From positions 1-36,572 of the forward strand of contig JAFGGO010000065.1 of the NCBI GenBank assembly GCA_016930515.1: a DNA stretch of 36,572 nucleotides, written 5' to 3'. A model generated the notes under the pieces. The model did no database searches. It saw nothing but the letters and a program-made list of their open reading frames with translations, and had not been told where the DNA came from. Below are positions 5,832-33,041 of the stretch, one piece after another (the first letter of the stretch is position 1; every line of letters begins with the position of its first letter). The stretch comes from Promethearchaeota archaeon (lineage in GTDB: Archaea > Asgardarchaeota > Lokiarchaeia > Sigyniarchaeales > SOKP01). The translations under genes and the position numbers were made by a program.

Positions 5832-6473
5832 ATGTCGGAGATTGATAAGGAAGAAAAAGATAGTAAAAACGCTGAGCAATTTAAAGAAATTATCATTATC
5901 TGTCCAAAGTGTCAGAACAAGAAAAAACTCAGTACGCCAACGAAAATTATTAATCAAAGCAAGCAACTAACTACCGTATCAATTCCTCAAGGTTTATGCT
6001 GTGAGCATGGTTTTCAGGCTTTCGTGGATAAGAATTTCAAGGTACGCGGATATCAACAGGTAGATTTTGCGTTTTCATCCTTGGAGTTTCTCGATGAAGG
6101 AGAAGAAAAACAAGCAGAAATTCCCTACTTTGAAAATATAGTTAATATTCTAAGAGAAGCTACGGAGGATATTGAAATCCTTGGAGGTGCCATATTAACT
6201 ATGGATGGAAAAGTCTTGTATTCCTCAATTCCCTCCACGACTTTTTCCAGTACTATCAAGGAATTCGAGGTTAGAGCTAAAAAAAACTTGATTAAAGTTA
6301 ACAAGATGTTCTTGGAATTAAAAAACGAAGAAAAAATTTGCTCGTACAATATGGAAACCAACGGAGTAAAGTTCAACCTAATATTAATCTTTTCCAACAA
6401 CACGAAGCTAGGGATGGCTAACTTGCTCTTAAAAGAAGTAACAAAGAAAGTTAAAGGTTTATTTCCCAAATAA
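5832..6473 (+). CDS. Zinc-ribbon (CPKC...CCEH) plus Roadblock/LC7-like domain protein, paralog 1
   Basis: CPKC-x-CCEHGFQAFVDKNFKVRGYQ; C-terminal ILGGAILTMDGKVLYSSIP typical of Roadblock/MglB folds. Confidence 0.65.
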   Translation: MSEIDKEEKDSKNAEQFKEIIIICPKCQNKKKLSTPTKIINQSKQLTTVSIPQGLCCEHGFQAFVDKNFKVRGYQQVDFAFSSLEFLDEGEEKQAEIPYFENIVNILREATEDIEILGGAILTMDGKVLYSSIPSTTFSSTIKEFEVRAKKNLIKVNKMFLELKNEEKICSYNMETNGVKFNLILIFSNNTKLGMANLLLKEVTKKVKGLFPK

Positions 6474-6497: not shown

Positions 6498-7166
6498 TTA
6501 TTCAACATTTATAGCTTTAAATAGACGTTTAAGAGTGTTGATCGCTGGTAAAAATACAATCATACCGTTGATGTCTAATTCCTCTATATCCATTTTAGTG
6601 TTTACCATTAAGACTAAATCCGAAGATTCCGCAGTTCTAGCTACAATATATTGCATTATCGATCCAAGCGCATCAAACGCAACATCGGGAACTCCCGGAA
6701 TTAACTTTATATTCATTAAATCGGCGAGTGCATTGGCATAATGACCTGCCAAGATGTTTCCCACCTCATTTATTGTACTTAAAATGAAATCGTTAATGTC
6801 GGAAAGTGAAGAAACCTCCTTAGATATTAGTGTGTGCTCTGGAGAAATGCTATTCACTACATTTATGATCGAATCCTTCTCATAAATCTGTAAAATCGAA
6901 AGTTCTTGGTCTTCCTTTACAAAAGATAATATCCCAAACACTTCCGTTTCCCTACCCCCAAATTTCTCAGGCAACTTCCAAAATGGAATTAAGTCGACCG
7001 AAGTAAGAGACATGTGAATACCCCTATTTAAAAGTTGAGAAAGTGCGGTTATCGCATGACCTGATCCGATGTTTCCCAATTCCATCAAGGAATCTAATTG
7101 CATTGGAGTTAATTTGAACTCTTCCGAACCATTTATAATTGATTCAATTTTCTTTTTCTTTACCAT
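6498..7166 (-). CDS. cheC: Chemotaxis phosphatase CheC
   Basis: Two ExxN sites (ELGNIGSGHAITALS, EVGNILAGHYANALAD); overlaps the 3' end of cheD. Confidence 0.9.
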   Translation of the reverse strand: MVKKKKIESIINGSEEFKLTPMQLDSLMELGNIGSGHAITALSQLLNRGIHMSLTSVDLIPFWKLPEKFGGRETEVFGILSFVKEDQELSILQIYEKDSIINVVNSISPEHTLISKEVSSLSDINDFILSTINEVGNILAGHYANALADLMNIKLIPGVPDVAFDALGSIMQYIVARTAESSDLVLMVNTKMDIEELDINGMIVFLPAINTLKRLFKAINVE

Positions 7167-7728
7167 TTATATCACTTTTTCCATATAGACGAATAAATTC
7201 GCCTTGACCTGTTGTTTTTACAAAAACTATTACTTTTTTAACATCAAATATTACATTTCTGCCCTTTGAGCCCCCTATGTCTTCTTTTAATATCCTTATA
7301 CCTAATTTGTTTAATTCTTTCCTAATAACATTAGCGTTTTGTTCACCAATGTTGTTTTGGTGATATCTAAATATTTTTGATCCCCCTATCACTATGGCTT
7401 TTAGATTGTTAACACGAGCGCCCTCTTCTAACAATTTCTCTACTAAATCTTTCACGGCGATATTAGCATATTTTTGCGGGAAATGAATCTCCTTAGATGC
7501 GCTCATTTCGGAAGAGGGAAGTAAAACGTGCGTCATTGCGTAGATCTTGGCTAAGTTATCTAACAAAATCAAGGATATGCACGACCCTAATCCGTGAATT
7601 TTAATTAGGGGGATGTTTTTTACTATTTTTTTATTGATTATGACATAATGACCGATAGGAATATAAATTGCCCCCTCTACATCAAGTTCTGTTATTCGAT
7701 CACCACGTATTTGAACCATCATTCTCAA
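7144..7728 (-). CDS. cheD: Chemoreceptor glutamine deamidase CheD
   Basis: GLGSCI, HVLLP, KAIVIGGSKIF, NIGEQNA, EDIGGSKGR. Confidence 0.92.
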   Translation of the reverse strand: MRMMVQIRGDRITELDVEGAIYIPIGHYVIINKKIVKNIPLIKIHGLGSCISLILLDNLAKIYAMTHVLLPSSEMSASKEIHFPQKYANIAVKDLVEKLLEEGARVNNLKAIVIGGSKIFRYHQNNIGEQNANVIRKELNKLGIRILKEDIGGSKGRNVIFDVKKVIVFVKTTGQGEFIRLYGKSDINGKEKEN

Positions 7729-7866
7729 AGAGTATTGATTAATATGAATTTTTTAGAACCATAATGAAAATTTTCAATTATAAGTTTATCCAAAATTGGT
7801 TGTTTTTAATAAAAAAGAATCTCCATTTTTTGGAAATAAATAAAATTATCGTTAACTGCCACTCGC

Positions 7867-8424
7867 TCATAATTTTTTGATTATTCTTTCGATTTCTTCA
7901 ATTCTTTTTTCAACATGTTGAATTGAATACTTTACATGAGAGTGAATCTCTTTAATCTCTCCAAGAAGCGTTTTTAATTTTGACTTGTCTATATTTGATA
8001 CTCCTTTTGATATGACATCCGGAACTATTTGATGTGGTGTTAAGGGAGATTCTATATCGAGACTGGCAACAACCTGCGAATCTCCTTCTGGCATTCCTCT
8101 CGATTCTCCAGGGTAATTGTAGTTTCCCCTATTATTAATTTCGTCCATTATGTATCGAAATGATTTGGGTTCTCGATCTTGTTTTATAACTTCGTACTTG
8201 TATTGAGTGTATTCTTTTTTTCCCTTTAACTTACCCGCCCAATTTGCAGCGATATATCTGTGAAAAAGCCGCGATTTTGAACCCGCCCAAATCCAAATTA
8301 TTTGCAAGGGTTTGTCTATAATGAGATACACATGTGGTGTTTGAAAAATTTCGGAAGGATTAGGTCTGAGCTCCTCTCCCACGATTTGATACACATAATT
8401 GAAATAATTCTCCTGTTTCTGCAT
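7867..8424 (-). CDS. Single gelsolin/villin-like domain plus C-terminal coiled coil
   Basis: VYLIID...IWIWAGSKS...VIKQDREPKSFR matches the gelsolin-repeat consensus (xxILD...I(Y/W)xWxG...QGxEPxxF); heptad C-terminus. Confidence 0.7.
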   Translation of the reverse strand: MQKQENYFNYVYQIVGEELRPNPSEIFQTPHVYLIIDKPLQIIWIWAGSKSRLFHRYIAANWAGKLKGKKEYTQYKYEVIKQDREPKSFRYIMDEINNRGNYNYPGESRGMPEGDSQVVASLDIESPLTPHQIVPDVISKGVSNIDKSKLKTLLGEIKEIHSHVKYSIQHVEKRIEEIERIIKKL

Positions 8425-8508
8425 GATGGACGCTATCGTATATAATAATTTAAAATTTTTGTGAAAAAAATATAAGAGTTTATCTTTGTTACATATCTTA
8501 ATTTACTC

Positions 8509-10473
8509 TTATAAAAATTGGGTCAATGCTTCCAACAAATGTTCTAATGTTTCCAATTCGGGAATGAAGAGAAAAGTACCCGTGACCTTGATGTCTTTAA
8601 TTATAACGGCGGTAGTAATGACAAGGGATAATTTTTTTAGGATACCAATTTCTTCTTTTAATATATTAAATAATTGTCTCCCCAAGTCAATGCTCATATC
8701 GGGAGGTTCGGTCATTAACCTTATACCTAATAGATCCCCAAGTGCTGTGGTGTAATGACTCGCAAGGATGTGACCTAGCTCTCCAATGGCACTTCTCTCA
8801 AGCTCGGGAAAATCAGTTATCGAATTAATATCTGATACTTTTAGTTTATGTGCATCTCCCCCTTCAACCATGATCCCCGCTAATCTTAAAATGTCAGAAA
8901 CCTTAAAGATTGAGAGTACCGTTGAACGAGTCTTCCCAGTAACATTGCTCCAAGCGACAAACAATTTTAAGTTCTTTTTACTGATATTATCTGCGTAGGT
9001 GTCCAATTCTACCATTTCAACTGCTGGAATGTTTATATCCACTCTTTTATTAATCATTTTTGCTAAAGCGTTTGCTGCGTTTCCTGCACCGATGTTGCCT
9101 ACTTCTTGAAGAGCATCTTTTTGTTGTTCTGTTAATATGATTGATTGTTCAGGTAACGGTTTTGCGGCGATTACTAGTTCATCCTCAATTCCAAGTGATT
9201 TGAAAAGATTATCTAACGAATCGATATCTGGTATGAAGAAGAAGTAACCTCTCAGCTGCAAGTCAACAACTCTCATTTCTGTTTTTATTAATACGACATA
9301 CTCCGAGAGTGCGCTAACCTCTTGTGCAAGGAAATCGCTTAGCTCGCCCGCCTTGCTCATGGTAAACTCGGGCACTTCGATTGATATTCTTTGTTCCATG
9401 AGGTCTGCCAAGGAGGAGGCATAATGACCTGCGAGAATGTTACCAACCTCAACTACGGTCGAAATAGCAAATTCGTCCAAGTCTTTCTTTTGCTTTACTT
9501 TATTTGGATCGATTTTTGATTCTTTTCCTGCCAAATCTTTAACGAGTTTCATCAAAGGTGTTGAGTCGAATACTTGAAGGATGGTCGATTGGGATGGTTG
9601 TTTTATGTGACTGAAGATACCACACACAACCTCGTTTTTTCCACCGAATTGTTTATGAAGGTCTTGAAATGATATTATACCAACATCGGTGAGGTCAACA
9701 TCGATTCGTTTGTTGATCAATCTTGACAATGCCGTAATTGCATTTCCCGATCCAATGTTGCCAATTTCCTTTAGAGCGTCTTGTTGAATTTTTGTGAGTT
9801 TGATATAACCCTCCTCTGAAGGAATCTCTACTTTTGCAGGTTTTATCGAGCTAGTACTGGCTGCTTTTACTTGAGTTGGTGTCTTCTTGCTCGTAGTTTT
9901 AGTTAAGTCGATATCTGCCACGATTTGAGGGCCTTGGGGCTCGATCTTTGGAAGTGGGGTTGGAACGAATCGCTCTTTCATGGCTCGCGGCGCTTCCATT
10001 TCTTCGTGAATTTCGCCTAATTTTGTAAAAATTGCTTCAAGATCAAGGACGATACATGTTTGATTTTCTTCCATTCCAATGTATTTTATGAATTTCCAGT
10101 CTATTTCGGTTTTAATTATCGAAGATTGAGATTCAAATATCGTATTCGGTAATTTTTTTATAGATTCCACAGAATCAACCAAAAATCCAAGGTTTAAGGC
10201 CTTATACTCCAATAATACGATACGAGAATCCTCGGAGATTTTAAATTGATCTGTATAATCGGGATGCAATATATGGGTTAAAGAGACGATAGTGTAGATA
10301 TCTCCACGAACATCGATTATTCCAACAATATGCCTTTCTGCTAATGGAATTGGTATTATAGCCATTTCAGGAACTTGGATCTCTTTAACTTCTCCCATTT
10401 CTAAATAAAATATCTCGTCGTTAATCTTAATTTCAACGAGAGTCAAATATTTCATGAGCTCTGATTCTGTCAT
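8509..10473 (-). CDS. CheW-CheC-CheC fusion protein
   Basis: N-terminal CheW (GIIDVRGDIYTIVSL, GFLVDSV); P/K/T/S-rich linker; two CheC units (EIGN/EVGN and EVGN/ELGH). Confidence 0.88.
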   Translation of the reverse strand: MTESELMKYLTLVEIKINDEIFYLEMGEVKEIQVPEMAIIPIPLAERHIVGIIDVRGDIYTIVSLTHILHPDYTDQFKISEDSRIVLLEYKALNLGFLVDSVESIKKLPNTIFESQSSIIKTEIDWKFIKYIGMEENQTCIVLDLEAIFTKLGEIHEEMEAPRAMKERFVPTPLPKIEPQGPQIVADIDLTKTTSKKTPTQVKAASTSSIKPAKVEIPSEEGYIKLTKIQQDALKEIGNIGSGNAITALSRLINKRIDVDLTDVGIISFQDLHKQFGGKNEVVCGIFSHIKQPSQSTILQVFDSTPLMKLVKDLAGKESKIDPNKVKQKKDLDEFAISTVVEVGNILAGHYASSLADLMEQRISIEVPEFTMSKAGELSDFLAQEVSALSEYVVLIKTEMRVVDLQLRGYFFFIPDIDSLDNLFKSLGIEDELVIAAKPLPEQSIILTEQQKDALQEVGNIGAGNAANALAKMINKRVDINIPAVEMVELDTYADNISKKNLKLFVAWSNVTGKTRSTVLSIFKVSDILRLAGIMVEGGDAHKLKVSDINSITDFPELERSAIGELGHILASHYTTALGDLLGIRLMTEPPDMSIDLGRQLFNILKEEIGILKKLSLVITTAVIIKDIKVTGTFLFIPELETLEHLLEALTQFL

Positions 10474-10498: not shown

Positions 10499-11353
10499 CT
10501 ATATATTTTTTTTTAGCATTATACCTTTCCACATGATTTCGCTTTCTGATTCGTCATGGGCGTATTCTGAGAAAAACCCCGGCTTTTTAACAACGGTTAC
10601 TTGGCCTCCTTCGATATTTAGATAAATATAATCTAATAAATCATCCAAATTGGTGAAATTAAAGCCAGCAATGTTTAAATCGGTGTTATCTACCATTAAT
10701 AAATCTACTCCAGCAAATGGCCTTCTATCGTCAACTAACTCGATCCATAATTCAGGAGAAAGGTCTTTTTTCTCGATTTTGATTGTTATATCTATAGGTA
10801 TATTTCTATATGTTTTATTCGGAGCAATTATAATGCGATCGGGAAATATTTTCTTTTGTTTTGAAAATTCTACGATTCCTGCTATCAGAGCATCGTAATC
10901 CTTTTTTTCAAGGACTTCAAAACAAGATATGAAGATAGTATTTTTATCTTGAGTCTCAACTATCAAGTCAACGCTCTTATCCTTGCTTGCTTTATTGATC
11001 TGAATTGATTTAACGCTAAAATCCCTTATATATTTTAAATATTGATAAAATCTCCATTTTACAGCAATTTTATTATTTAATTCCTTGCTTATGAACACTT
11101 TATAGAGAAGTTGCAGTTTGTCTTCTTTTAATTTAGATATATTTGCCTCGTCTTTCTTTTGCTTGTCGAAACTCAGGAACTCTTCCTTACCTTTCCCATT
11201 AAAATCTTCTAAAAGGGTATCCAGCTCGAATTGTGTAAGTTTGGGTGCGATATAATCTATTAAGTAGGCCAATCGTTTTTGCGATTTATCTTGTAAGGTA
11301 TTATAATACTGAATGCTCATTTTTTTCACTTTTCCTCTATATTTTTTAACCAT
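10499..11353 (-). CDS. Hypothetical protein in che cluster (possible degenerate PD-(D/E)xK-like fold); start may be ATG at 11320
   Basis: 284-aa ORF abutting neighbours; VDLIVETQDKNTIFISC resembles a D...ExK core without the ExK; AGAGG upstream of 11320. Confidence 0.6.
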   Translation of the reverse strand: MVKKYRGKVKKMSIQYYNTLQDKSQKRLAYLIDYIAPKLTQFELDTLLEDFNGKGKEEFLSFDKQKKDEANISKLKEDKLQLLYKVFISKELNNKIAVKWRFYQYLKYIRDFSVKSIQINKASKDKSVDLIVETQDKNTIFISCFEVLEKKDYDALIAGIVEFSKQKKIFPDRIIIAPNKTYRNIPIDITIKIEKKDLSPELWIELVDDRRPFAGVDLLMVDNTDLNIAGFNFTNLDDLLDYIYLNIEGGQVTVVKKPGFFSEYAHDESESEIMWKGIMLKKNI

Positions 11354-13376
11354 AGAAATACGATTCTAATTCTGATGCTTTTATTTCTTTTCCAGATATG
11401 TTCTTCAAATAATACATGATTTCTTGTTCTTGAAAAGGAAGAATATTTTTTATCGTGTAAGTGATCGTGTTGATACCATCGCTTTTGTTGCTGACGATTT
11501 TATGTTCCATGCTTGAAGTTATTAATTCGAAAGACTCTGGATAAGTATCAACAATTTCTAAATTCTCCAATTCAACATTTGACTTGTTTTTTATCGTAAT
11601 GACGATTGCAAATTCGTCGTGTGTTCTTCCCGGATAAATTTCCTTTCCTATAGATGCTTTACGACGTTTATGTGCAACTTTTAGAGAAGGTACTTCCTTT
11701 TCCTTTGAAACGGTTTCTTCTTTTACATAGAAAACTTTCAAGGCTGCTTGACCTTCGAATTTGTAATCTTTTAAATCTCCTTGATCCTTGAATTTGTGAT
11801 AAATGGATTTTATTTCAAGTGGAAATTTATAATCTTTTTTATTATCTGGGGATACAGCCTTAAATGAATATTTTAATTCAATAAAATCATTTGTTCCTAT
11901 TGCGTTTATAAGGCTACTTTTATTGCTTATCTCGATTGAATGTGAAGTATTGGGGTCTTCGTTAGGTGGTTCAATTTTTAAGTCAAAATCTTCCGAATTT
12001 AAAGCCCCTGTATGGTTTGAAAATACATATTCAGAAACATTCTTTGGTGGAAGAAAATCCTCTGGTATGCTTTCTTTTATCACAATTCCTTTTACAGGGA
12101 TGGTGCCCATATTTTCCATTTTTACTACAGCGTGAACGATAGATTCTTCGAACGATTTTATTTCCTTTTCTGAAATCTCTTTTGTAATCCGCAAACCAAT
12201 TATATTGAAAATTTCATCTTCAATGCGAGCTACTACTTCCGTATTTTCGTCTTTTTTATACACAATGGAATATCCGAGTTTTCTTGAAAACCTTGGCTCC
12301 TCTTCGCTTTCAACTCGCCAAGATTTAGAGATATATTCCTCTCCTGGTTGAATCAACTCTTTGAGTGAAGATGAATCGAGTTCCAAGTAAGTATTCGTTT
12401 TTGTCTTGTCAGTAACTTTAATGGAACTAAGTTGAATGGGAAAACTACTCTTGTTTGTGAATCTAAAAGAACAATTCCACTTATTTGGCGCTTCGTCAAT
12501 TTCTATTTTTTCTATAAGATGAAGTGCGTGCGAGTAAGCTGAAAAAGTGTTAATCTTTGTTCCCGAAATTATGTGGTTGCTAATGACATAAGATAAATCA
12601 ATCTTTCCCGTCCTGATGTTCTCCTTAGTTTTAGGGTTGACTTTACAGTTGATTGTTAAATTCTTGGTTTCTCCCGGTTTCATTTCGTTAATGAACCAGT
12701 CGATCGTGTTTCCGCTGACTTTTACACTCTTGTCTTGGGTATTGTGTTCAAATTTCAGCCCATAAAAACTTTTAGATAAACTTTTTCTCACATTGAGGTT
12801 CTTCAGGGATAAGCGTGAATTATTTTTAGCCGTAAGGTGAAAAATTACTGAATTTTCTTTTCCGTACATTAAATAAAAATTAAGCTTTTCTAAATTGCTT
12901 TCGTCCGCAAAAACTCGACCTTGCTCGTCTAGTATTTCGATTTTTTCTTTAAAACCCAAGACTTGCTTGAGTTGTTCTCCGTTTATGATGTTATATTTGA
13001 TATTCCTGCTTGTTTTTGGTTCAAAAATACCGAGGTTCATCTCGTTTTCAGACTCCAGACTAGTGAATTCTGAACCAGAAAAAGTTATCTGAGCGTCCCA
13101 GATCCTATCCTTACTTGAGTTATTGGTGATGAGAATATTTCCATACCCTTCAAGGGATTTTATCGAACCATCGTGAGTCAAATGATATTCCAAAAGTTCT
13201 TCGTTTTCAATAATGACTTCTGAAATGGAAGTGCTAAGTTCGGAGCTAACGCGTGCTTTTTTTTCTTCTAGTGCTTCTTCCTTGACAACCTGTCCTAAAA
13301 TATTTATTGGTATTCCAATAAAACTTGGTCCTTGCTTTATTTTTAGTTCCGTTATGGTAATATTTTTAAATCCCAT
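11346..13376 (-). CDS. Cytoplasmic multi-beta-sandwich protein (mu-homology/delta-COP-like N-terminal part, DUF11-like Ig repeats)
   Basis: EELLEYHLTHDGSIKSLEGYGNILITN; NTIDWFINEMKPGETKNL; repeated xxNxx...IxxxD/ExxPxxF units; no signal peptide or TM helix. ORF is solid, family is tentative. Confidence 0.55.
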   Translation of the reverse strand: MGFKNITITELKIKQGPSFIGIPINILGQVVKEEALEEKKARVSSELSTSISEVIIENEELLEYHLTHDGSIKSLEGYGNILITNNSSKDRIWDAQITFSGSEFTSLESENEMNLGIFEPKTSRNIKYNIINGEQLKQVLGFKEKIEILDEQGRVFADESNLEKLNFYLMYGKENSVIFHLTAKNNSRLSLKNLNVRKSLSKSFYGLKFEHNTQDKSVKVSGNTIDWFINEMKPGETKNLTINCKVNPKTKENIRTGKIDLSYVISNHIISGTKINTFSAYSHALHLIEKIEIDEAPNKWNCSFRFTNKSSFPIQLSSIKVTDKTKTNTYLELDSSSLKELIQPGEEYISKSWRVESEEEPRFSRKLGYSIVYKKDENTEVVARIEDEIFNIIGLRITKEISEKEIKSFEESIVHAVVKMENMGTIPVKGIVIKESIPEDFLPPKNVSEYVFSNHTGALNSEDFDLKIEPPNEDPNTSHSIEISNKSSLINAIGTNDFIELKYSFKAVSPDNKKDYKFPLEIKSIYHKFKDQGDLKDYKFEGQAALKVFYVKEETVSKEKEVPSLKVAHKRRKASIGKEIYPGRTHDEFAIVITIKNKSNVELENLEIVDTYPESFELITSSMEHKIVSNKSDGINTITYTIKNILPFQEQEIMYYLKNISGKEIKASELESYFYG

Positions 13377-13401: not shown

Positions 13402-15495
13402 TTATTGAATGCTGGTTAATTTAGTAAATTTATCGGGAGTTATGTTCGTATCAATTATGCTTAAAACATCTAATACTAAACATATGGATCCATCAGACAT
13501 TATTGTTGAACCCAAGATGTCGTAAAAATCGGAAAAATTAAACTTGAAAGGTTTTACAACTAAATTCATTTGTTGGAGAATTTCGTCTATTACAAAAACA
13601 GCAGAGACTTGTTCATCCTTCTTAATCCATACAGCAGTTTTTGAACTGCCGTTGTATTCTTGATTTTGATTGGAAATGCCTAAATATTCATTTAAATAGA
13701 TAATTGGTATTAAATCGTTTTCAATTTTAAAGTAATCTTCATCCCCCACGCTTTCAACGAGTCCACGATCGTATAGATAAATTTGATTGATGTTCTCAGT
13801 GGGTATGGCGAATAAATCACCTGCAACCTTAATAAGTTGAGCGTTAAGAATGGCTCTTGTAAAAGGTACTATTAAAGTGAATGTTGATCCTTTATCTTTT
13901 TCTGAATGGATCGTGAACGATCCTCCCAATTGCTTCATTTTATCGGCAACTATTGCTAAACCCATACCTCGCCCTGATATTTGATTTGCATCTGAAAGAA
14001 TAGAAAATCCTGGTAAGAGTATCATCATGTTTAATTCTTCAACAGAAAGTTTTTCAGCGTCTTCTTTAGAGTAGATCTTTTTTTCAACGATCTTTTCTCT
14101 GATTTTATCGTAATTAATTCCGCCTCCGTCATCAATAACTTGGATGTAAATGAGTCCAGCTCTTCTAGATGTTGCTAACATGAGGGAACCCGACTCATCC
14201 TTTCCTTTCTTCTTTCTCTCGGCGGGATTTTCAAGACCGTGATATATTGCGTTTCGGAGTAAATGTATGAGCGGACTATTAATTTCTTCTAATATTTTTC
14301 TATCAATCTCAACATTTGTACCTTCAAGGATGAAATCAACTTTCTTTTTCTGTTCTCTTGCTACATCTCTTACCAACCTGCGATATTTTCTGAAAGTCGA
14401 TTCAACTCTCACTAATTTAAGCTTGAATATGATTTCTTGAACTTCCATAAAAGGCTTGTCGAGTTCGTCAAATAGATGGTTTAAATCTACAAGACCTCTT
14501 TCTTTTAACATTTGGTTGATTTGATTTTTTAATATGACGATCTCTCCAAAATAATTCATCAGGTTTTCTAAAATGTTGATGTCGACCTTAACACTTGCAA
14601 TCTTTTCCGTTTCTTCTTGAAATGATTCAACAATCGTTGATCTTGATTCGAAATCCGACCTAGTTTTTTCTTTCGGAACACCTGAGGAAGATAAAGTGAC
14701 TGCCTGCTTCTTTCTAGCTTCTTTCCAGCTTGGAATGTCCTTATTAAAAATTACTTCAACATCTTTATTTTGAAGTTCAGACACGACCTTGTTCTCTATC
14801 TCTAAAATTTCGTCTAAGACTTTTAAAATATCTGAATCGATTTTTTGGGATAAGAAAAAGAATTCAAAATCGATGTTAAAATCTCCAGATTCTAAAACTT
14901 CGGGGTGGGGTTTGCTAAAAAAAATTTTACCCATGTCGTTTAATGCTCTTGAAATGATGAATAATCTCACTTTCTTAAATACGCATGTCGGTTGAAGTCT
15001 AATGTAAATCCTGTAAAACTTATTTTTCTTATCAGAAAGCAATTTTTTTACATCTGAAGGTGGAATAATACTAACGATTGATACTTCCAATTCGCTTCCT
15101 CCACTTTCGAATTCGTCAAAACTTTCCTTGATAGAATTGAGAAATTTCTCGTCAATATCGCTTAAATCTCCTTTTTTTACTCGTTTCAAAATTGATCTTA
15201 AAAGATCGAGACTATCAAAGAGGAGTCCGATGAAGGTGTCTTGTTGATTCCCAGCAATCTCCTCTTCTTTTGATTTGTCCAAGAACGACTCAAAAATATG
15301 GCAAAACTTTGAAGCTCTGTCCAAACCCGCCATTGCGGTGAGTCCTTTTAATGTGTGAAACGCAAAATAGAGCTCTTGCTTTGGCTTCGTTTCGTTTGGA
15401 TTCTTTTCCAATTTGAATATTTCGTCCTCTATTTTCTGGATGAGATCTTCAGCTTCGCTTATGAACAGATTGAGGTCGTCTTTAGATATTGACAA
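13402..15495 (-). CDS. cheA: Chemotaxis histidine kinase CheA
   Basis: HPt FHTLKG; P2 domain; KVDINILENLMNYFGE dimerisation; HLLRNAIYHG, DDGGGI, PGFS, SGRGMGL; C-terminal CheW domain; TTG start after GGTGA. Confidence 0.95.
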   Translation of the reverse strand: MSISKDDLNLFISEAEDLIQKIEDEIFKLEKNPNETKPKQELYFAFHTLKGLTAMAGLDRASKFCHIFESFLDKSKEEEIAGNQQDTFIGLLFDSLDLLRSILKRVKKGDLSDIDEKFLNSIKESFDEFESGGSELEVSIVSIIPPSDVKKLLSDKKNKFYRIYIRLQPTCVFKKVRLFIISRALNDMGKIFFSKPHPEVLESGDFNIDFEFFFLSQKIDSDILKVLDEILEIENKVVSELQNKDVEVIFNKDIPSWKEARKKQAVTLSSSGVPKEKTRSDFESRSTIVESFQEETEKIASVKVDINILENLMNYFGEIVILKNQINQMLKERGLVDLNHLFDELDKPFMEVQEIIFKLKLVRVESTFRKYRRLVRDVAREQKKKVDFILEGTNVEIDRKILEEINSPLIHLLRNAIYHGLENPAERKKKGKDESGSLMLATSRRAGLIYIQVIDDGGGINYDKIREKIVEKKIYSKEDAEKLSVEELNMMILLPGFSILSDANQISGRGMGLAIVADKMKQLGGSFTIHSEKDKGSTFTLIVPFTRAILNAQLIKVAGDLFAIPTENINQIYLYDRGLVESVGDEDYFKIENDLIPIIYLNEYLGISNQNQEYNGSSKTAVWIKKDEQVSAVFVIDEILQQMNLVVKPFKFNFSDFYDILGSTIMSDGSICLVLDVLSIIDTNITPDKFTKLTSIQ

Positions 15496-15517: not shown

Positions 15518-15904
15518 TTATTGGGCTTTTTTACCTAGAATTCTTTCAAGTACTTCTAGGATTTGTTCTGTCTTAAACGGCTTTTGGATGAAGTCCTTGG
15601 CACCTTTTTTCGCAGCCTCTAGAACTAGAGCTTCTTGTCCTAAGGCTGATACGACGACGATCAAAGCCTTTGGATCAACCTTGAGAATCTCCTCGATGGT
15701 TTCAATACCTCCTTTTTCAGGCATTACCAAGTCCATGGTAACCATGTCGGGTTTTAGTTTTTTATATAATTCTACGCCTTCCTTGCCATTAGAGCCTTCT
15801 CCAACAATTTCAACGAAACCCGTCTTGTTCATGATATTTTTCAAAATATTTCGCGTGAACTGGGCATCGTCTACTATCAACACTCTTTTTTTTTCGTTTG
15901 CCAT
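15518..15904 (-). CDS. cheY: Chemotaxis response regulator CheY
   Basis: VDDA, phosphoacceptor TMDLVMP, SALGQ, KPF; single receiver domain; GAGG upstream of ATG 15904 (ORF track starts at 15919). Confidence 0.93.
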   Translation of the reverse strand: MANEKKRVLIVDDAQFTRNILKNIMNKTGFVEIVGEGSNGKEGVELYKKLKPDMVTMDLVMPEKGGIETIEEILKVDPKALIVVVSALGQEALVLEAAKKGAKDFIQKPFKTEQILEVLERILGKKAQ

Positions 15905-15922
15905 GATTCTTTTCCTCATATA

Positions 15923-16453
15923 TTATTTTGATAATTCTTTTTGAATTTTAACTTGCTCGGCTTCAGTAAGTATTTTTTCAACATCGAGAAGAATTCTTGG
16001 ACGATCTTTGGATTTAATAATTCCCTTTATGTATTCCATGCTTATGCTAGTTTCAAAGATAGGGCTCAGACCAACGACATCCTTTCCTTTCAAGTGGGAT
16101 ATGTTAATAATTCGGTCTACCAAGAAACCCGTGTTTACATCGTTAACGCTGGCGATTATGATATACTCGTTCGATTTTGATTCTTCTTGTTCTTTCTCTT
16201 CCCCGGCCTTCTTGGCCCTTAAGTGTTTATACTTGTAAAGCTTTAACTTTTTACTCAAGTTAATGACGTAAATGATTTCTCCTCTATAGTTATAAATGCC
16301 CTCAACATATTCGAAAGTTTGAGGCAACCTTCTAATTTGCCCTTTTGGAACTATTTCCCTTGCGTTTAGTAGATCAATCGCGAATTGTTCTCCTTCAACT
16401 TCAAAAAATATTACCGAAGTCGCTTTTTTTTCGGTTTCTGTCTTTTCCATCAT
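15923..16453 (-). CDS. cheW: Chemotaxis coupling protein CheW
   Basis: FAIDL..REIV, LPQTFEYVEGIYNYRGEIIYVINL, GFLVDRI, ILLDVEKIL. Confidence 0.92.
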   Translation of the reverse strand: MMEKTETEKKATSVIFFEVEGEQFAIDLLNAREIVPKGQIRRLPQTFEYVEGIYNYRGEIIYVINLSKKLKLYKYKHLRAKKAGEEKEQEESKSNEYIIIASVNDVNTGFLVDRIINISHLKGKDVVGLSPIFETSISMEYIKGIIKSKDRPRILLDVEKILTEAEQVKIQKELSK

Positions 16454-16470: not shown

Positions 16471-17289
16471 TTAAATTATAAGATATTCGTAAACTATATC
16501 TTCAAATCCATTAAATTGAGCAATATCACCATCGAATCGTTCTAAAGATTTTTTATACCTACCAACAAATTCTTCGGCGATTATATACATGTATCGCTTG
16601 AGCAATGGACTCATTCTTTCGATCAAATATGCGATAATAACTTTTTTTTCTGTGATCGTGTAAAATGATTGATTCCCAAAGTTAATTTCTCTTAACTTAC
16701 CGCCGCTTTCCTTACCAATTACGAATTGTGAGAAGGAAAATAAGGCAGAAATAAAACCACCAATTTGTACTTCTCCTTCCCGAATATCTTCTCTTATTCC
16801 CATTACTCTCGTGTATAATGGACAACCCGCGTAATCAACAATAAATAAACCGATCACGCCTCCAATTCGGGGAATATCAACGGTTTGTTTACATATATCA
16901 ATTAAAAAATTAATATCTTTATTTGAATTAAATTGATTTATTATTTTTTTTGAGTGTAAGTATAACTTTGGGTATACATGAGCGCTTTCTTTCTCGTCGA
17001 TGTATATTATGATTATGATTTCGTCAGAACTCGTTTGAAAATAATTTAGAAAAACCATAAATTCCTCAAGTGGAAAAAAAGATTTTCCATTTTTTTTGTT
17101 TAACATCTCAGTCTTGTATAATTCGATAATGTTTTGAATCAGCGATACTCCTATTCCCTTTTGCAATAATACTTCAAAGGTATCTTTTGTCTCTATTAAT
17201 GAAAGAGAAACTAACCCAACACCTAGTATTTCCAAGTGTTTTATTTGTTGCGTGTTATCAATATCCGTACTATTCGTCATGACCATCAT
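16471..17289 (-). CDS. Longin-domain protein (C-terminal longin/sybindin-like domain; N-terminal half possibly a second degenerate longin)
   Basis: GLFIVDYAGCPLYTR...GGFISALFSFSQ...LREINFGNQSF...EEFVGRY...FDGDIAQFNGF, a typical Asgard longin pattern. Confidence 0.72.
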   Translation of the reverse strand: MMVMTNSTDIDNTQQIKHLEILGVGLVSLSLIETKDTFEVLLQKGIGVSLIQNIIELYKTEMLNKKNGKSFFPLEEFMVFLNYFQTSSDEIIIIIYIDEKESAHVYPKLYLHSKKIINQFNSNKDINFLIDICKQTVDIPRIGGVIGLFIVDYAGCPLYTRVMGIREDIREGEVQIGGFISALFSFSQFVIGKESGGKLREINFGNQSFYTITEKKVIIAYLIERMSPLLKRYMYIIAEEFVGRYKKSLERFDGDIAQFNGFEDIVYEYLII

Positions 17290-17755: not shown

Positions 17756-18367
17756 ATGGACCAAGAAACGGGGATAGTTAAGGATGTTTTGATCATTTGC
17801 CCAAAATGCCAAAAAAGAAAAAAGCTACAAATTCCCGTCAAAATCATCAATAAAAGCAAACAATTAACCACCGTATCGATCCCTGCGGAAATTTGCTGTG
17901 AACACGGATTTCAGGCGTTTATTGATAAAAACTTTAAGGTTCGCGGGTATCAACAAGTAGATTTCGATTTTTCTAAGTTAGAATACTTGGAAAAAGAAGG
18001 ACAACCAGACGAAGAGATCTCCGAACTAGAAGAAATCATTAAAGTACTAAGGAATTGCGTGGACGATAATGATGTTCTCGGAAGCGCGTTGTTTAACATA
18101 GAAGGCAAGGTACTATATTCCTCTCTATCAACTGACACCTTGTTTAATACTATCCGGGAATTTGAAACCCGAAAAGAAGAACAATTAGCTAAGATTAATC
18201 GCATCTACCTCGTGCTGGAAAACAGGCAAATGGTTTGTTCTAAGTTTTTCGACATTCAAGATAAAGAATTTATTTTAACCGTGATTCTTTCCGAAAAAGT
18301 TAAAATCGGGATGGGAAACCTTATCCTGAGAAACCTCGAAAAAGAACTCCTAAATTTGATACATTAA
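17756..18367 (+). CDS. Zinc-ribbon plus Roadblock/LC7-like domain protein, paralog 2
   Basis: CPKC...CCEHGFQAFIDKNFKVRGYQQVDF, nearly identical to 5832..6473; VLGSALFNIEGKVLYSSL; GGAG upstream. Confidence 0.65.
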   Translation: MDQETGIVKDVLIICPKCQKRKKLQIPVKIINKSKQLTTVSIPAEICCEHGFQAFIDKNFKVRGYQQVDFDFSKLEYLEKEGQPDEEISELEEIIKVLRNCVDDNDVLGSALFNIEGKVLYSSLSTDTLFNTIREFETRKEEQLAKINRIYLVLENRQMVCSKFFDIQDKEFILTVILSEKVKIGMGNLILRNLEKELLNLIH

Positions 18368-30155: not shown

Positions 30156-33041
30156 TCACTTGATTTGAGATTTTGCATACATCAGCATTGAATTCAGCTG
30201 AAGACCTTGAGGTGAGTTTTCTACGCCTTGTTGTTTATAAATTTCCAATGCGCTCTCCAAATAGCTCACGCTTTGTTCGAATTTATGCTGCGACACTAAC
30301 ACCTGACCAATGCTCACGAGACACATTGATTTAGATCTCAAGTTTCCAGACTTTTCGTAATATTCAAGAGCTTTTCGATAAAAATTCATGCCCTCATCGT
30401 GGTTTCCTTGAGCCATATAAATATTTCCAATACCCATTGCGTTGTCTGCAATTCCCGTTGGATTCTCCAATTTTTCTTCGATTTGCAGCGCCTCCTGATA
30501 ATATTTAAGCGCTTCGACGAAATTATATTGAAAATAATAGATGCTACCTATACAAACATAAGCGCGAGCCTTACCCTTTAAGCTTCCTAATTCTTCATAT
30601 ATTTTTAAAGACTCCACTTGGTTTTTGAGCGCTTCTGGAAAATTTTTTAAATTTTGGTAGATACCTCCAATATTCGTATGGCACATTGCAGCAGTAGCGA
30701 TATCTCCAATTTTTTTACTCGTTTCTAAGGCTTCTTGGTATTTGATCAAGGCGTCTTGATAATTTCCTTGCAAGTTAAGTACTCCCGCAATTCCTGATTG
30801 ATTTTGGGCTATTAAAGACAGATTCCCGAGGTCTTGTGTTATTTCAAGTGCTTTTTGATAGTTCTTAAGCGCTTCTTGCAAGTTTCCTGTGTTAAGATAT
30901 GTTGTAGCCATGTTTGTCAAATTCTTCGCTTGTCCTGGCACATTTCCAATTTCTAAGTTTATTTCTAAAGAATGGTCGAATAAATCTAACGCTTCTTGAG
31001 TTTTTCCTTGTAATTGACATATATTTCCTATATTCATCAAATTTAGCGATTCTGAAACTAAATCATTCAATTTTTTGTTGATTTCCAAGGATTCTTTAAA
31101 CTTTGTAGTTGCTTCGTCGTATTTCCCTTGATTCGTCATTAACGTTCCTATATTCGTTAAAATGCGAGACTTACTATTCTCGTCTTGAATTGTTTCGCTA
31201 ATCTCCAACGCTCCTTGGTAGATCTCTAACGCTCCCTCATATTTTCCCTGGTTGAGTAGTAGCGTTCCCTTGCTTATTAATGTGTTTATAGTTTTAGATA
31301 AATTTCCCAAAACTTTAGAAATCTCAAGTGAATCTTCGAAAAAGGGGAGCGCTTTTTCATATTCTCCTCGAAGCATGTGCATGATCCCCACGTTATTTAA
31401 CTTGGCAGCCTTTCCGTCTAAATCGCCCAATTTATCGTCAATCTCTAACGCTTCCTTATAATTATTCGTGGCCAGATCGTACTTACCCTGATCCCTATAA
31501 GCGTCCGCTTTATTAGCCAAAAGGACGGATTTTATGGTCAAATCTCCTATTTGGTCGTTTATTTCGAGTGCTTCTTGAAAACGCGAAAGGGCATCGTTGT
31601 ATTTGCCTTGTCTTATTAGAATTGCTCCAATGTTATTGAGCGTTTTGACTTTACCCTTTAAATTCCCTTTCTGATTTTGAATATCGTAGGCAGAATTAAA
31701 ATAGGATAGGGCATTAGGATAATCGTGCTTGTCTGCAGTGGCCGTTCCGATGTAATGCAGACTTTCTGCTGCACCTTCTGTATCTCCCAATTCTTGTCTA
31801 ATTTTTAGCGATTTTTCGAAATAGCTCAAGGCCTCGTCGTACTGGCTCTTCATCAAATCGGCACTACCAATCTTTATGTGAAAATCAGCTTGCGAGGACA
31901 AATCTCCTCTCGATATCGAGATTTGGAGACCTTTTTCAGAAGTACTTTTAGCATCGTCAGGTCTTGCTAATCTATAATAGATTTCGTGAGCGAATGCGTG
32001 TTTCTTGAAGTTGTTGTTAAAATCAACATTTCTTGAAACAAAAGATTTAAAATTTTCTGGCTGAAATGTTTTTTGACTAATATTCTCGGGTAGATCGCTC
32101 TTGATGAGAATGTTCCATAATCGTTTTGTAAAAAAATGAGATGTGTGGGTGTTAATCTTATAAATTTCGATTGGATTGTCCTGAAGCGTTGCGCTGTTGG
32201 CAATCTCTTTTAAGAGCGCTATTTCCTTACTCGACGATTCCTCTGATGAGGTATAATCAAATTTTAATAATTCGAGATTGATGTCGTTCGAATGGTTTAA
32301 CCAAACGAGCTTAGAGACACCATGAAGTTCCTTTAAGGTTGGACCAATATCAAAGTCATCGCTCCCAGAATACCCTGCTACTATCAATGTAGCGTTTTGA
32401 AGGGCGTTGAACAGTGTTGCTCTTTTATATGGTTCCAAGGCAAAGGTTTCTCCTTCTCCTCTTTCCTTGCCCAATGAAGACAATGTGGTAACCAATGTTT
32501 CTTTGGTGATAGTGCCAGTTACGATGTTTTTATTTGTACCGTGCAATTTAATCAAAGGATATTTTTCCTCCTGAAATAAGTTTCCAGGATTTCTATGTTT
32601 CAAGAAATCCTCTTTGGTTATGATGGGAACAATATTTTCCTTATTATCCAAAATCCTCATCAAGGCGTATTCGATGAGGTAATCAAAATTTGTTGTTGCG
32701 ACGAGATAATTCCTTTTTATAGCATTTGCTAAAAAATAATGGATCAGGTTTGGTTCTGTAAAGATGTCAAAATAGCCCATGGCTTTCAGATCAGGATCAA
32801 AATTATGCTGGAGGATCTCGACGATTAATTCGTATCTCAACCCTTCGAGGTTCTTAATGTTATTAACCTCTTCTTCGGGAGCGCCGAGCTCTATCAAGGC
32901 ATCGCTAAATCCAATTGCGGAAGGCACGGAGGAAGGTTTATCCATGGATATTCCCGCACCTACTAGAAAAAATAGCTTGTTCTCGCCTGAAAAAATTTCT
33001 TCTAATCGCTTTTCAGGAGAGTCCTCAACTTTGAAAGACAT
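30156..33041 (-). CDS. SIR2-like domain plus TPR-repeat protein
   Basis: FLVGAGIS, TTNFDYLIE, LIKLHG, VAGYSGSDDFDI; then roughly 14-15 repeats of about 40 aa (NNIG...QGKY..AL....AL.I...G). Confidence 0.88.
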   Translation of the reverse strand: MSFKVEDSPEKRLEEIFSGENKLFFLVGAGISMDKPSSVPSAIGFSDALIELGAPEEEVNNIKNLEGLRYELIVEILQHNFDPDLKAMGYFDIFTEPNLIHYFLANAIKRNYLVATTNFDYLIEYALMRILDNKENIVPIITKEDFLKHRNPGNLFQEEKYPLIKLHGTNKNIVTGTITKETLVTTLSSLGKERGEGETFALEPYKRATLFNALQNATLIVAGYSGSDDFDIGPTLKELHGVSKLVWLNHSNDINLELLKFDYTSSEESSSKEIALLKEIANSATLQDNPIEIYKINTHTSHFFTKRLWNILIKSDLPENISQKTFQPENFKSFVSRNVDFNNNFKKHAFAHEIYYRLARPDDAKSTSEKGLQISISRGDLSSQADFHIKIGSADLMKSQYDEALSYFEKSLKIRQELGDTEGAAESLHYIGTATADKHDYPNALSYFNSAYDIQNQKGNLKGKVKTLNNIGAILIRQGKYNDALSRFQEALEINDQIGDLTIKSVLLANKADAYRDQGKYDLATNNYKEALEIDDKLGDLDGKAAKLNNVGIMHMLRGEYEKALPFFEDSLEISKVLGNLSKTINTLISKGTLLLNQGKYEGALEIYQGALEISETIQDENSKSRILTNIGTLMTNQGKYDEATTKFKESLEINKKLNDLVSESLNLMNIGNICQLQGKTQEALDLFDHSLEINLEIGNVPGQAKNLTNMATTYLNTGNLQEALKNYQKALEITQDLGNLSLIAQNQSGIAGVLNLQGNYQDALIKYQEALETSKKIGDIATAAMCHTNIGGIYQNLKNFPEALKNQVESLKIYEELGSLKGKARAYVCIGSIYYFQYNFVEALKYYQEALQIEEKLENPTGIADNAMGIGNIYMAQGNHDEGMNFYRKALEYYEKSGNLRSKSMCLVSIGQVLVSQHKFEQSVSYLESALEIYKQQGVENSPQGLQLNSMLMYAKSQIK

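Follow-up and report, generated by a model that had tools for sequence, protein, structure and literature searches.

Introduction

CheF of Halobacterium and Haloferax is a lineage-specific non-Che protein encoded with archaeal che genes. It binds CheY-P and the archaellum switch and joins the chemosensory pathway to a cellular target. In Vibrio (ParC/ParP) and Rhodobacter (PpfA), accessory genes of che clusters tie receptor arrays to a cellular scaffold. The che-like Frz pathway of Myxococcus xanthus steers a non-flagellar surface movement via the Ras-like GTPase MglA and the Roadblock protein MglB. Archaeal che systems of the F1 class co-occur strongly with the archaellum and have a limited representation in Promethearchaeota, according to a survey from 2026 (PMC13747009).

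Asgard archaea crawl by means of Lokiactin-dependent protrusions (PMC13716822). Chemotaxis is mentioned neither there nor in a preprint (10.1101/2025.11.30.690169) that reported five gelsolin-homology proteins enriched in a Lokiactin co-immunoprecipitation (co-IP) from L. ossiferum; the protein B35_GelX was enriched with a log2FC of 2.28 (p 0.0036). The structures of ProGel (PDB 7C2F, Akil et al. 2020, PMC7444086) and of 2DGel proteins place the gelsolin domain between subdomains 1 and 3 of actin. ProGel of Thorarchaeota binds G-actin very weakly, with a Kd of 337 uM, and bundles filaments (PMC7444086). Thor 1DGelX (KXH72031.1) severs and nucleates without calcium and has a Kd of 7.7 uM for rabbit actin (PMC7444086). 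Its domain X is a predicted coiled coil (Akil et al. 2020, PMC7444086).

The window analysed here is a stretch of 36,572 nucleotides from a Promethearchaeota archaeon (GenBank assembly GCA_016930515.1, contig JAFGGO010000065.1, positions 1 to 36,572). It carries a che cluster with a gelsolin-like gene, here called che-Gel, which an original prediction from the letters of the sequence had named as a candidate for an actin-regulating output of the pathway. No published description of the che-Gel family in che operons was found in a literature search.

The che-Gel gene and its cluster

The che-Gel gene is one of ten same-strand genes that run on the minus strand from position 17289 to 6498 (Table 1), in a window of 35.8% GC. 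Its translation includes the strings VYLIID, IWIWAGSKS and QDREPKSF. The peptides quoted in the original prediction, and the site it gave between the CheW-CheC-CheC fusion and CheD on the same strand, were borne out by the ORF map and by Pfam. In a word-based search, 137 full-length homologs were retrieved, all from Asgard archaea and with E-values down to 1e-104, so che-Gel is no chance ORF. The earlier observation was confirmed, and the gene is genuine and conserved. Neither NCBIfam, the protein atlas nor Pfam gave a family name for che-Gel.

Table 1. Features of che-Gel and of its gene cluster in the window
Feature	Coordinates	Strand	Basis or remark
272-aa first gene of the cluster	16471..17289	minus	no Pfam family; longin-like by an earlier reading of the sequence
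CheW	15923..16453	minus	
CheY	15518..15919	minus	
CheA	13402..15495	minus	
676-aa beta-sandwich protein	11346..13376	minus	Pfam: DUF11, sub-threshold adaptin mu-homology match
Orphan 284-aa protein	10499..11353	minus	no Pfam/NCBIfam family; weak PD-(D/E)XK-like fold similarity
CheW-CheC-CheC fusion	8509..10473	minus	Pfam: CheW 1.6e-18, CheC 4.1e-41; constant upstream neighbour of che-Gel
84-bp gap before che-Gel	8425..8508	minus	T7 run 8464-8470, A/T tracts; possible internal promoter or terminator
che-Gel gene	7867..8424	minus	185 aa, 21.7 kDa, pI 9.0; stop codon 7867-7869
Predicted gelsolin-fold domain, residues 7-110	8095..8406	minus	AF2, Foldseek, VIA, profile
Long helix region, residues 51-68 (SRLFHRYIAANWAGKLKG)	8221..8274	minus	near-invariant in the family
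Linker, residues 111-143	7996..8094	minus	acidic, disordered, poorly conserved; AF2, alignment
C-terminal amphipathic helix, residues 144-185	7870..7995	minus	about five heptads; AF2, alignment
138-bp gap after che-Gel	7729..7866	minus	
CheD	7144..7728	minus	Pfam 3.2e-26
CheC	6498..7166	minus	last cluster gene in this genome

In Pfam the beta-sandwich protein matched DUF11 (2.2e-11); two further matches, to the adaptor-complex medium-subunit domain (1.1e-5) and to the alpha-adaptin C2 domain (5e-3), were below threshold. Its length varies between genera from 673 to 1220 aa. The 284-aa orphan is present in every cluster locus, including a locus without Gel (G128, see below). A CheY-binding or actin-related fold was looked for in it and not found: its confident model (pLDDT 83, pTM 0.84) had no clear match in the PDB, and the structure search instead gave weak similarity to nucleases of PD-(D/E)XK type, with Can2, Card1, EcoO109I, NucS/EndoMS and Hjc as the best rows at E-values of 3e-3 or weaker. 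The che cluster is bracketed by two paralogous plus-strand genes (5832-6473 and 17756-18367), which are 51% identical and without Pfam or NCBIfam family. In a genus-mate genome the same bracketing gene lies upstream of the 272-aa first gene. Elsewhere in the window, and unrelated to the che cluster, a 961-aa protein encoded on the minus strand (30156-33041) carries a long TPR array after a SIR2_2 domain (6.2e-8).

Fold and domain architecture

The AF2 model of che-Gel, computed with an alignment as input, had a mean pLDDT of 80 and values above 89 over residues 11-110. In this part the strands and helices follow each other as in gelsolin: strands are at residues 11-15, 18-21, 32-37, 42-47 and 76-81, and the central beta-sheet is packed between a long helix (53-67) and a short one (87-98). 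In gelsolin G1 and ProGel, the equivalent of the long helix is the main helix for actin binding (PMC7444086). A Foldseek search with the model gave ProGel (7c2f_B) as the top match, with an E-value of 4.8e-6, a TM-score of 0.76 by target and a probability of 1.00, and all 50 matches listed belong to the gelsolin superfamily, as was proposed in the original prediction. Superposition with VIA on 7c2f_B resulted in a Z-score of 12.4 and an rmsd of 1.9 A over 85 of the 88 ProGel residues, at 25% identity; domains of eukaryotic gelsolin, CapG, villin and adseverin gave Z-scores of 9.6-11.2. Against the PDB, the single che-Gel sequence found 7c2f_B at an E-value of 3.7e-4. A profile of 40 che-Gel homologs improved this to 1.2e-6 and also found Heimdall 2DGel (7whf_G, 2.4e-4), Thor 2DGel3 (7c2h_G, 1.1e-3) and villin (2.7e-3). 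By model and profile together, residues 7-110 belong to the gelsolin/cofilin-fold superfamily as a predicted gelsolin-homology domain. The Pfam Gelsolin model PF00626 gave no match in che-Gel at E-values up to 0.1. Since B35_GelX, which was enriched with Lokiactin, likewise gets no match, this is a limit of the Pfam model and not of the fold.

The model contains one gelsolin repeat only, in agreement with the single domain that had been predicted, and the remainder of the protein consists of a linker and one helix. The flexible linker and the C-terminal coiled coil of the original prediction were recovered as well. pLDDT was below 50 at residues 114-141, and the mean top-residue frequency in the linker was 0.24. 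The tail is modelled as one heptad-regular helix (144-184), and in the best register hydrophobic residues occupy 10 of its 12 a/d positions. Residues E156, E159, H163, K165, Y166, S167, H170 and R174 of the tail are conserved and exposed. Together with the heptads, these polar residues suggest that the tail may provide a docking surface in addition to oligomerisation.

ProGel is the best structural and sequence match of che-Gel and is, like it, a single domain without calcium sites. The two proteins also have the LF...A.KL pattern of the long helix in common. ProGel differs from che-Gel in being a bare domain of about 90 aa, with neither linker nor coiled-coil tail, and has not been reported in che clusters. 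The architecture of che-Gel, by AF2 and heptad analysis one gelsolin domain followed by a coiled-coil region, is that of the Asgard 1DGelX proteins, in which the single gelsolin domain is followed by a long stretch that is non-globular and by a predicted coiled coil. GelX genes, unlike che-Gel, are located outside che clusters. B35_GelX (UYP44381.1) was the best match to the che-Gel profile in L. ossiferum, with an hhalign probability of 95.7%. The alignment covers residues 3-99 only, at 28% identity, and leaves the tails of the two proteins (346 and 185 aa) unaligned. On these alignments, che-Gel is to be regarded as a non-ortholog of Thor 1DGelX and B35_GelX.

A direct tie of che-Gel to the Lokiactin co-IP failed, as the genome of L. 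ossiferum contains no che-Gel ortholog and the distant B35_GelX was the sole match. The co-IP of B35_GelX would thus back an actin-related reading of che-Gel through kinship only. Both the crawling and the co-IP were studied in L. ossiferum, whose che type differs and is without che-Gel. Its CheA proteins are 26-30% identical to that of the window, and its che clusters contain no Gel, beta-sandwich or orphan genes.

The calcium ligands were compared in an alignment of che-Gel with the 2DGel of its own genome and with B35_2DGel1 of L. ossiferum. The ligand columns were assigned from the established sites of gelsolin G1. The TGD, SVDEK and KLD columns of 2DGel correspond in che-Gel to TPH (variable), RLFHR (with an invariant H55) and KLK (with an invariant K67). 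The type-2 Asp and Glu ligands and the type-1 Asp ligand (D, E, D) are thereby replaced by H/G/S, H55 and K67. Because of this replacement che-Gel should be calcium-independent, as ProGel and 1DGelX are.

Distribution and co-inheritance with che genes

In a scan of 400 Asgard genomes the scores were bimodal: che-Gel orthologs scored above 130 bits and everything else below 71. Orthologs were found in 41 genomes, 39 of them in the GTDB family of the window and one each in two other families. All 41 have a window-type CheA (at least 47% identical), and none of the 400 genomes has a che-Gel ortholog without one. The two genes are 5-7 kb apart in the approximately 31 genomes in which both are located on one contig; most of the others are interrupted at the end of a contig. 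A window-type CheA without an ortholog was seen in five genomes of the family. In four of these, CheA is truncated or at a contig edge (verified for G154), and the fifth, G152, is 74% complete. Lokiactin is 95-100% identical across the family; of 30 other members that were sampled, 28 have it, and che-less genera are among them. Since these genera keep Lokiactin, che-Gel is no housekeeping actin factor, and in combination with the strict pairing of Gel and CheA it follows that che-Gel is inherited and lost with che and not with actin.

The neighbourhood of the orthologs was also examined, and che genes adjoin Gel in every locus that could be checked; neither this result nor the gelsolin-like fold refuted the original prediction. 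The order 272-aa protein, CheW, CheY, CheA, beta-sandwich protein, orphan, CheW-CheC-CheC and Gel was the same at the 13 loci compared, which represent 9 genera and 3 GTDB families. The genes after Gel vary and are cheR, cheB, cheD, cheC or a gene for a Ras-like GTPase with a weak Roadblock match. In a closed genome of 3.3 Mb the cluster is split into two parts 1.08 Mb apart, and Gel is located in the half that encodes CheW-CheC-CheC, CheR, CheB, CheD, CheC and the GTPase. A relative from another GTDB family (G128; L021, G128:C5:932000-951000) has CheW, CheY, CheA, the beta-sandwich protein and the orphan and contains no gelsolin gene in its cluster. In this locus a separate CheW (184 aa) and CheC (213 aa) replace the fusion, and cheR follows after 56 bp. 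From its conserved position across lineages and its co-loss, che-Gel is an accessory member of the chemosensory gene cluster.

An exhaustive profile search of 1.84 billion representatives resulted in 93 clusters at E-values up to 1e-3, and the 18 matches at E-values up to 1e-30 were all stand-alone proteins of 100-205 aa. No fused (Rosetta-stone) forms of che-Gel, including fusions with a Che domain, were found among these 18 or in a word search for longer proteins. In the genus of the window, the cluster is without the cheR, cheB and Ras-like GTPase genes that come after Gel in most other genera.

Intergenic gaps

The two gaps that flank che-Gel have the sizes that were first read from the sequence. 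In other genera a cheR or Ras-like GTPase gene follows Gel at -4 to 59 bp (143 bp in one locus). Of the 13 complete loci, 12 have their largest conserved-core gap (50-195 bp) directly before Gel, with a near-tie in G169, and a T-run and A/T tracts are usual at this site in the relatives. In the window, the che-Gel ATG is preceded at a distance of 15-28 nt by the A/T tract aaattattatata (about 8439-8452). The caveat in the original prediction that che-Gel may have its own promoter was reasonable in view of the size of the preceding gap. The T-run and TATA-like tracts, in contrast, are ordinary for a genome of 35% GC and were rejected as specific evidence of a terminator or promoter. This genome has 672 gaps of 50-200 nt between same-strand genes, of which 71% contain a run of at least five T and 25% a run of at least seven, and the T-runs before Gel carry no weight for this reason. 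Rfam gave nothing credible in either flanking gap (one match, E 0.42), and small ORFs in the downstream gap look spurious. An internal promoter before che-Gel is plausible, judged from the sequence.

Sensory, motor and gelsolin genes of the host genome

In the genome of the window, which has 4.0 Mb and is 94% complete, Lokiactin (381 aa, contig C111) is accompanied by three further proteins of the actin family. Pfam recognises at least six gelsolin-domain genes there, and 8 MCPs are encoded. The CheR and CheB orthologs of this genome are located on other contigs (C48, C163 and C124). Archaellin, CheF (PF04283) and the pilus platform protein T2SSF were searched for in this genome and not found, and T2SSE gave one marginal match of 27 bits. 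As F1 che systems normally pair with the archaellum and neither archaellum nor type IV pilus genes were found, the complete che system appears here without its usual output. che-Gel resembles CheF as a lineage-specific non-Che protein encoded with archaeal che genes. The two proteins have no relation in sequence or fold, PF04283 is not in che-Gel, and no archaellum genes accompany it.

Two other gelsolin-domain genes of this genome were followed. Gel184 (184 aa; contig C85, L011:116-3415, minus strand) is a paralog with a gelsolin domain (Pfam, 30.5 bits), a linker and a C-terminal helix. It is part of a four-gene module that consists of a Roadblock protein (139 aa), a 319-aa protein without Pfam family (Roadblock-like), Gel184 and a 439-aa protein with a FIST sensor domain. 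Of 10 loci fetched from 8 genera, including che-less ones, 9 kept the order of this module. Proteins with a gelsolin domain and a tail are thus found in two kinds of sensory-type operon, this module and the che cluster. Gel245 (245 aa; contig C136, L019:3-1843) begins 35 bp after cheB on the same strand. This adjacency to cheB was seen in the genus of the window only, and the Gel245 family is present in 120 of 135 genomes of the GTDB family. Many Gel245-family matches in genera g11 and g12 have one in-frame stop (TGA, TAA or TAG) in the N-terminal part.

Possible functions of che-Gel

The reading put forward here is that che-Gel joins the chemosensory pathway to Lokiactin in some way, to which a rough probability of 45% is given. 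The role of che-Gel as a candidate actin-regulating output of the pathway, as named in the original prediction, is an interpretation partly supported by sequence comparison and structure models. The reading is backed by the fold and by the homology to actin-bound Asgard gelsolins, by what is known of the relatives B35_GelX and Thor 1DGelX, by the strict co-inheritance with the che cluster, by the lack of motor matches in the genome and by the Lokiactin-dependent crawling of Asgard archaea. In addition, the gelsolin domain of che-Gel is basic (pI 9.4) and Lokiactin is acidic (pI 5.2). Against it speak the very weak binding of G-actin by ProGel, the closest structure, the Asn61 and the helix conservation described below, the lack of a match to the Pfam Gelsolin model, the different che type of L. 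ossiferum and the related cluster of G128, which works without a Gel gene. In the proposed mechanism, a Lokiarchaeia-type chemosensory system without known motor would have che-Gel as its own accessory subunit. It would be a calcium-independent single-domain gelsolin of the ProGel/1DGelX kind, connected by an acidic linker to a tail that forms a coiled coil of about five heptads. The gelsolin domain would bind Lokiactin via the long helix, in the manner in which ProGel and gelsolin G1 contact actin. The tail would form oligomers, dock on a cluster partner, or both, and the obvious candidate for such a partner would be CheW-CheC-CheC, encoded just upstream. che-Gel could in this way act as a signal-controlled filament regulator, possibly under the control of CheY-P, or hold receptor arrays on filaments as a tether. 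A tether would be a functional analogy to ParC/ParP and PpfA, which are ParA-type ATPases and CheW-like partners and use the nucleoid or the cell pole instead of actin. In the most specific version, the state of the pathway, as CheY-P or as the CheW-CheC-CheC phosphatase scaffold, would switch che-Gel between a held and an actin-active form, and Lokiactin would be severed, capped or bundled locally so that crawling is steered along gradients. This version is distinctly improbable at present. If it were true, a bacterial-type two-component chemotaxis system would be wired directly to a eukaryote-like actin cytoskeleton.

An explanation that is rather doubtful, though more probable than the specific switch, is that the gelsolin fold was re-used for a non-actin partner. 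che-Gel would then belong, as a structural or adaptor subunit, either to the receptor array or to the adaptation module of CheC/CheD; the invariant long helix would bind a Che protein and the tail would build the oligomer. Conservation of the long helix fits this explanation. The mean top-residue frequency of residues 51-68 was 0.96, compared with 0.75 in the rest of the domain, whereas at similar divergence the corresponding values were 0.80 and 0.72 for the Gel184 paralogs and 0.57 and 0.69 for the Gel245 family. As these families of the same genomes do not have a hyperconserved helix, the constraint is special to che-Gel, and the partner could therefore be a protein other than actin, or the helix could serve two partners in turn. 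Hyperconservation as a sign of actin binding was weakened by the same comparison. H55, N61 and W62 are invariant in the long helix and peculiar to che-Gel in comparison to ProGel, and the invariant Asn61 presumably occupies, as we read the alignment, the column of Ile103, the main hydrophobic actin contact of gelsolin G1. Re-use would also agree with the constant position of Gel after CheW-CheC-CheC and the split of this fusion in the Gel-less G128, and with the strict co-inheritance and co-loss with che genes. To our knowledge, however, no known che system has a gelsolin-type subunit, and no Che-domain fusion was found among the matches at E-values up to 1e-30 from the 1.84 billion representatives. 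The close structural and sequence relatives of che-Gel, moreover, are all actin binders. A precedent for re-use exists in the gelsolin-like domains of Sec23/24, which are not known as actin binders (Sec23a is so cited in PMC7444086), but Sec23/24 chains were absent from the 50 Foldseek matches listed for che-Gel.

It is very unlikely that che-Gel, together with the roadblock-Ras-like GTPase of the cluster and the putative longin-like protein, serves a polarity switch comparable to the action of Frz on MglA/MglB, as an effector or regulator of the GTPase and not of CheY. In most genera the cluster encodes a protein of 318-322 aa that combines Ras/Arf domains with a weak match to Roadblock, which is the likeness of these relatives to Frz, and in one genus its gene directly follows Gel, at 8-59 bp. 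The module of the paralog Gel184, with its Roadblock and Roadblock-like proteins, points in the same direction. On the other hand, che-Gel is present in the genome of the window while the cluster GTPase has no ortholog there (33% identity for the best match), and neither the genus-mate locus G153 nor the loci of genera g4 and g6 show a GTPase after Gel. Frz, for its part, contains no gelsolin. Least credible is a passenger, i.e. an ordinary actin regulator with its own promoter and no signalling role inside the che cluster, for which the large gap before Gel and its A/T-rich promoter-like and T-run sequences would speak, but the T-runs are weightless, the gene never occurs without the cluster, che-less relatives that keep Lokiactin and other gelsolins are devoid of it, and it has held its position in three GTDB families and even where the cluster is split.

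Significance

Among the single-domain Asgard gelsolins, che-Gel is a new, che-dedicated form, and it is fixed in a chemosensory cluster with no known motor. If it binds Lokiactin, chemosensing in prokaryotes and a eukaryote-type cytoskeleton would for the first time be joined by a testable molecular link, and such a link would bear on the origin of directed cell movement before eukaryotes. If it does not bind Lokiactin, the gelsolin fold would have been taken over by a signalling complex, which would also be new.
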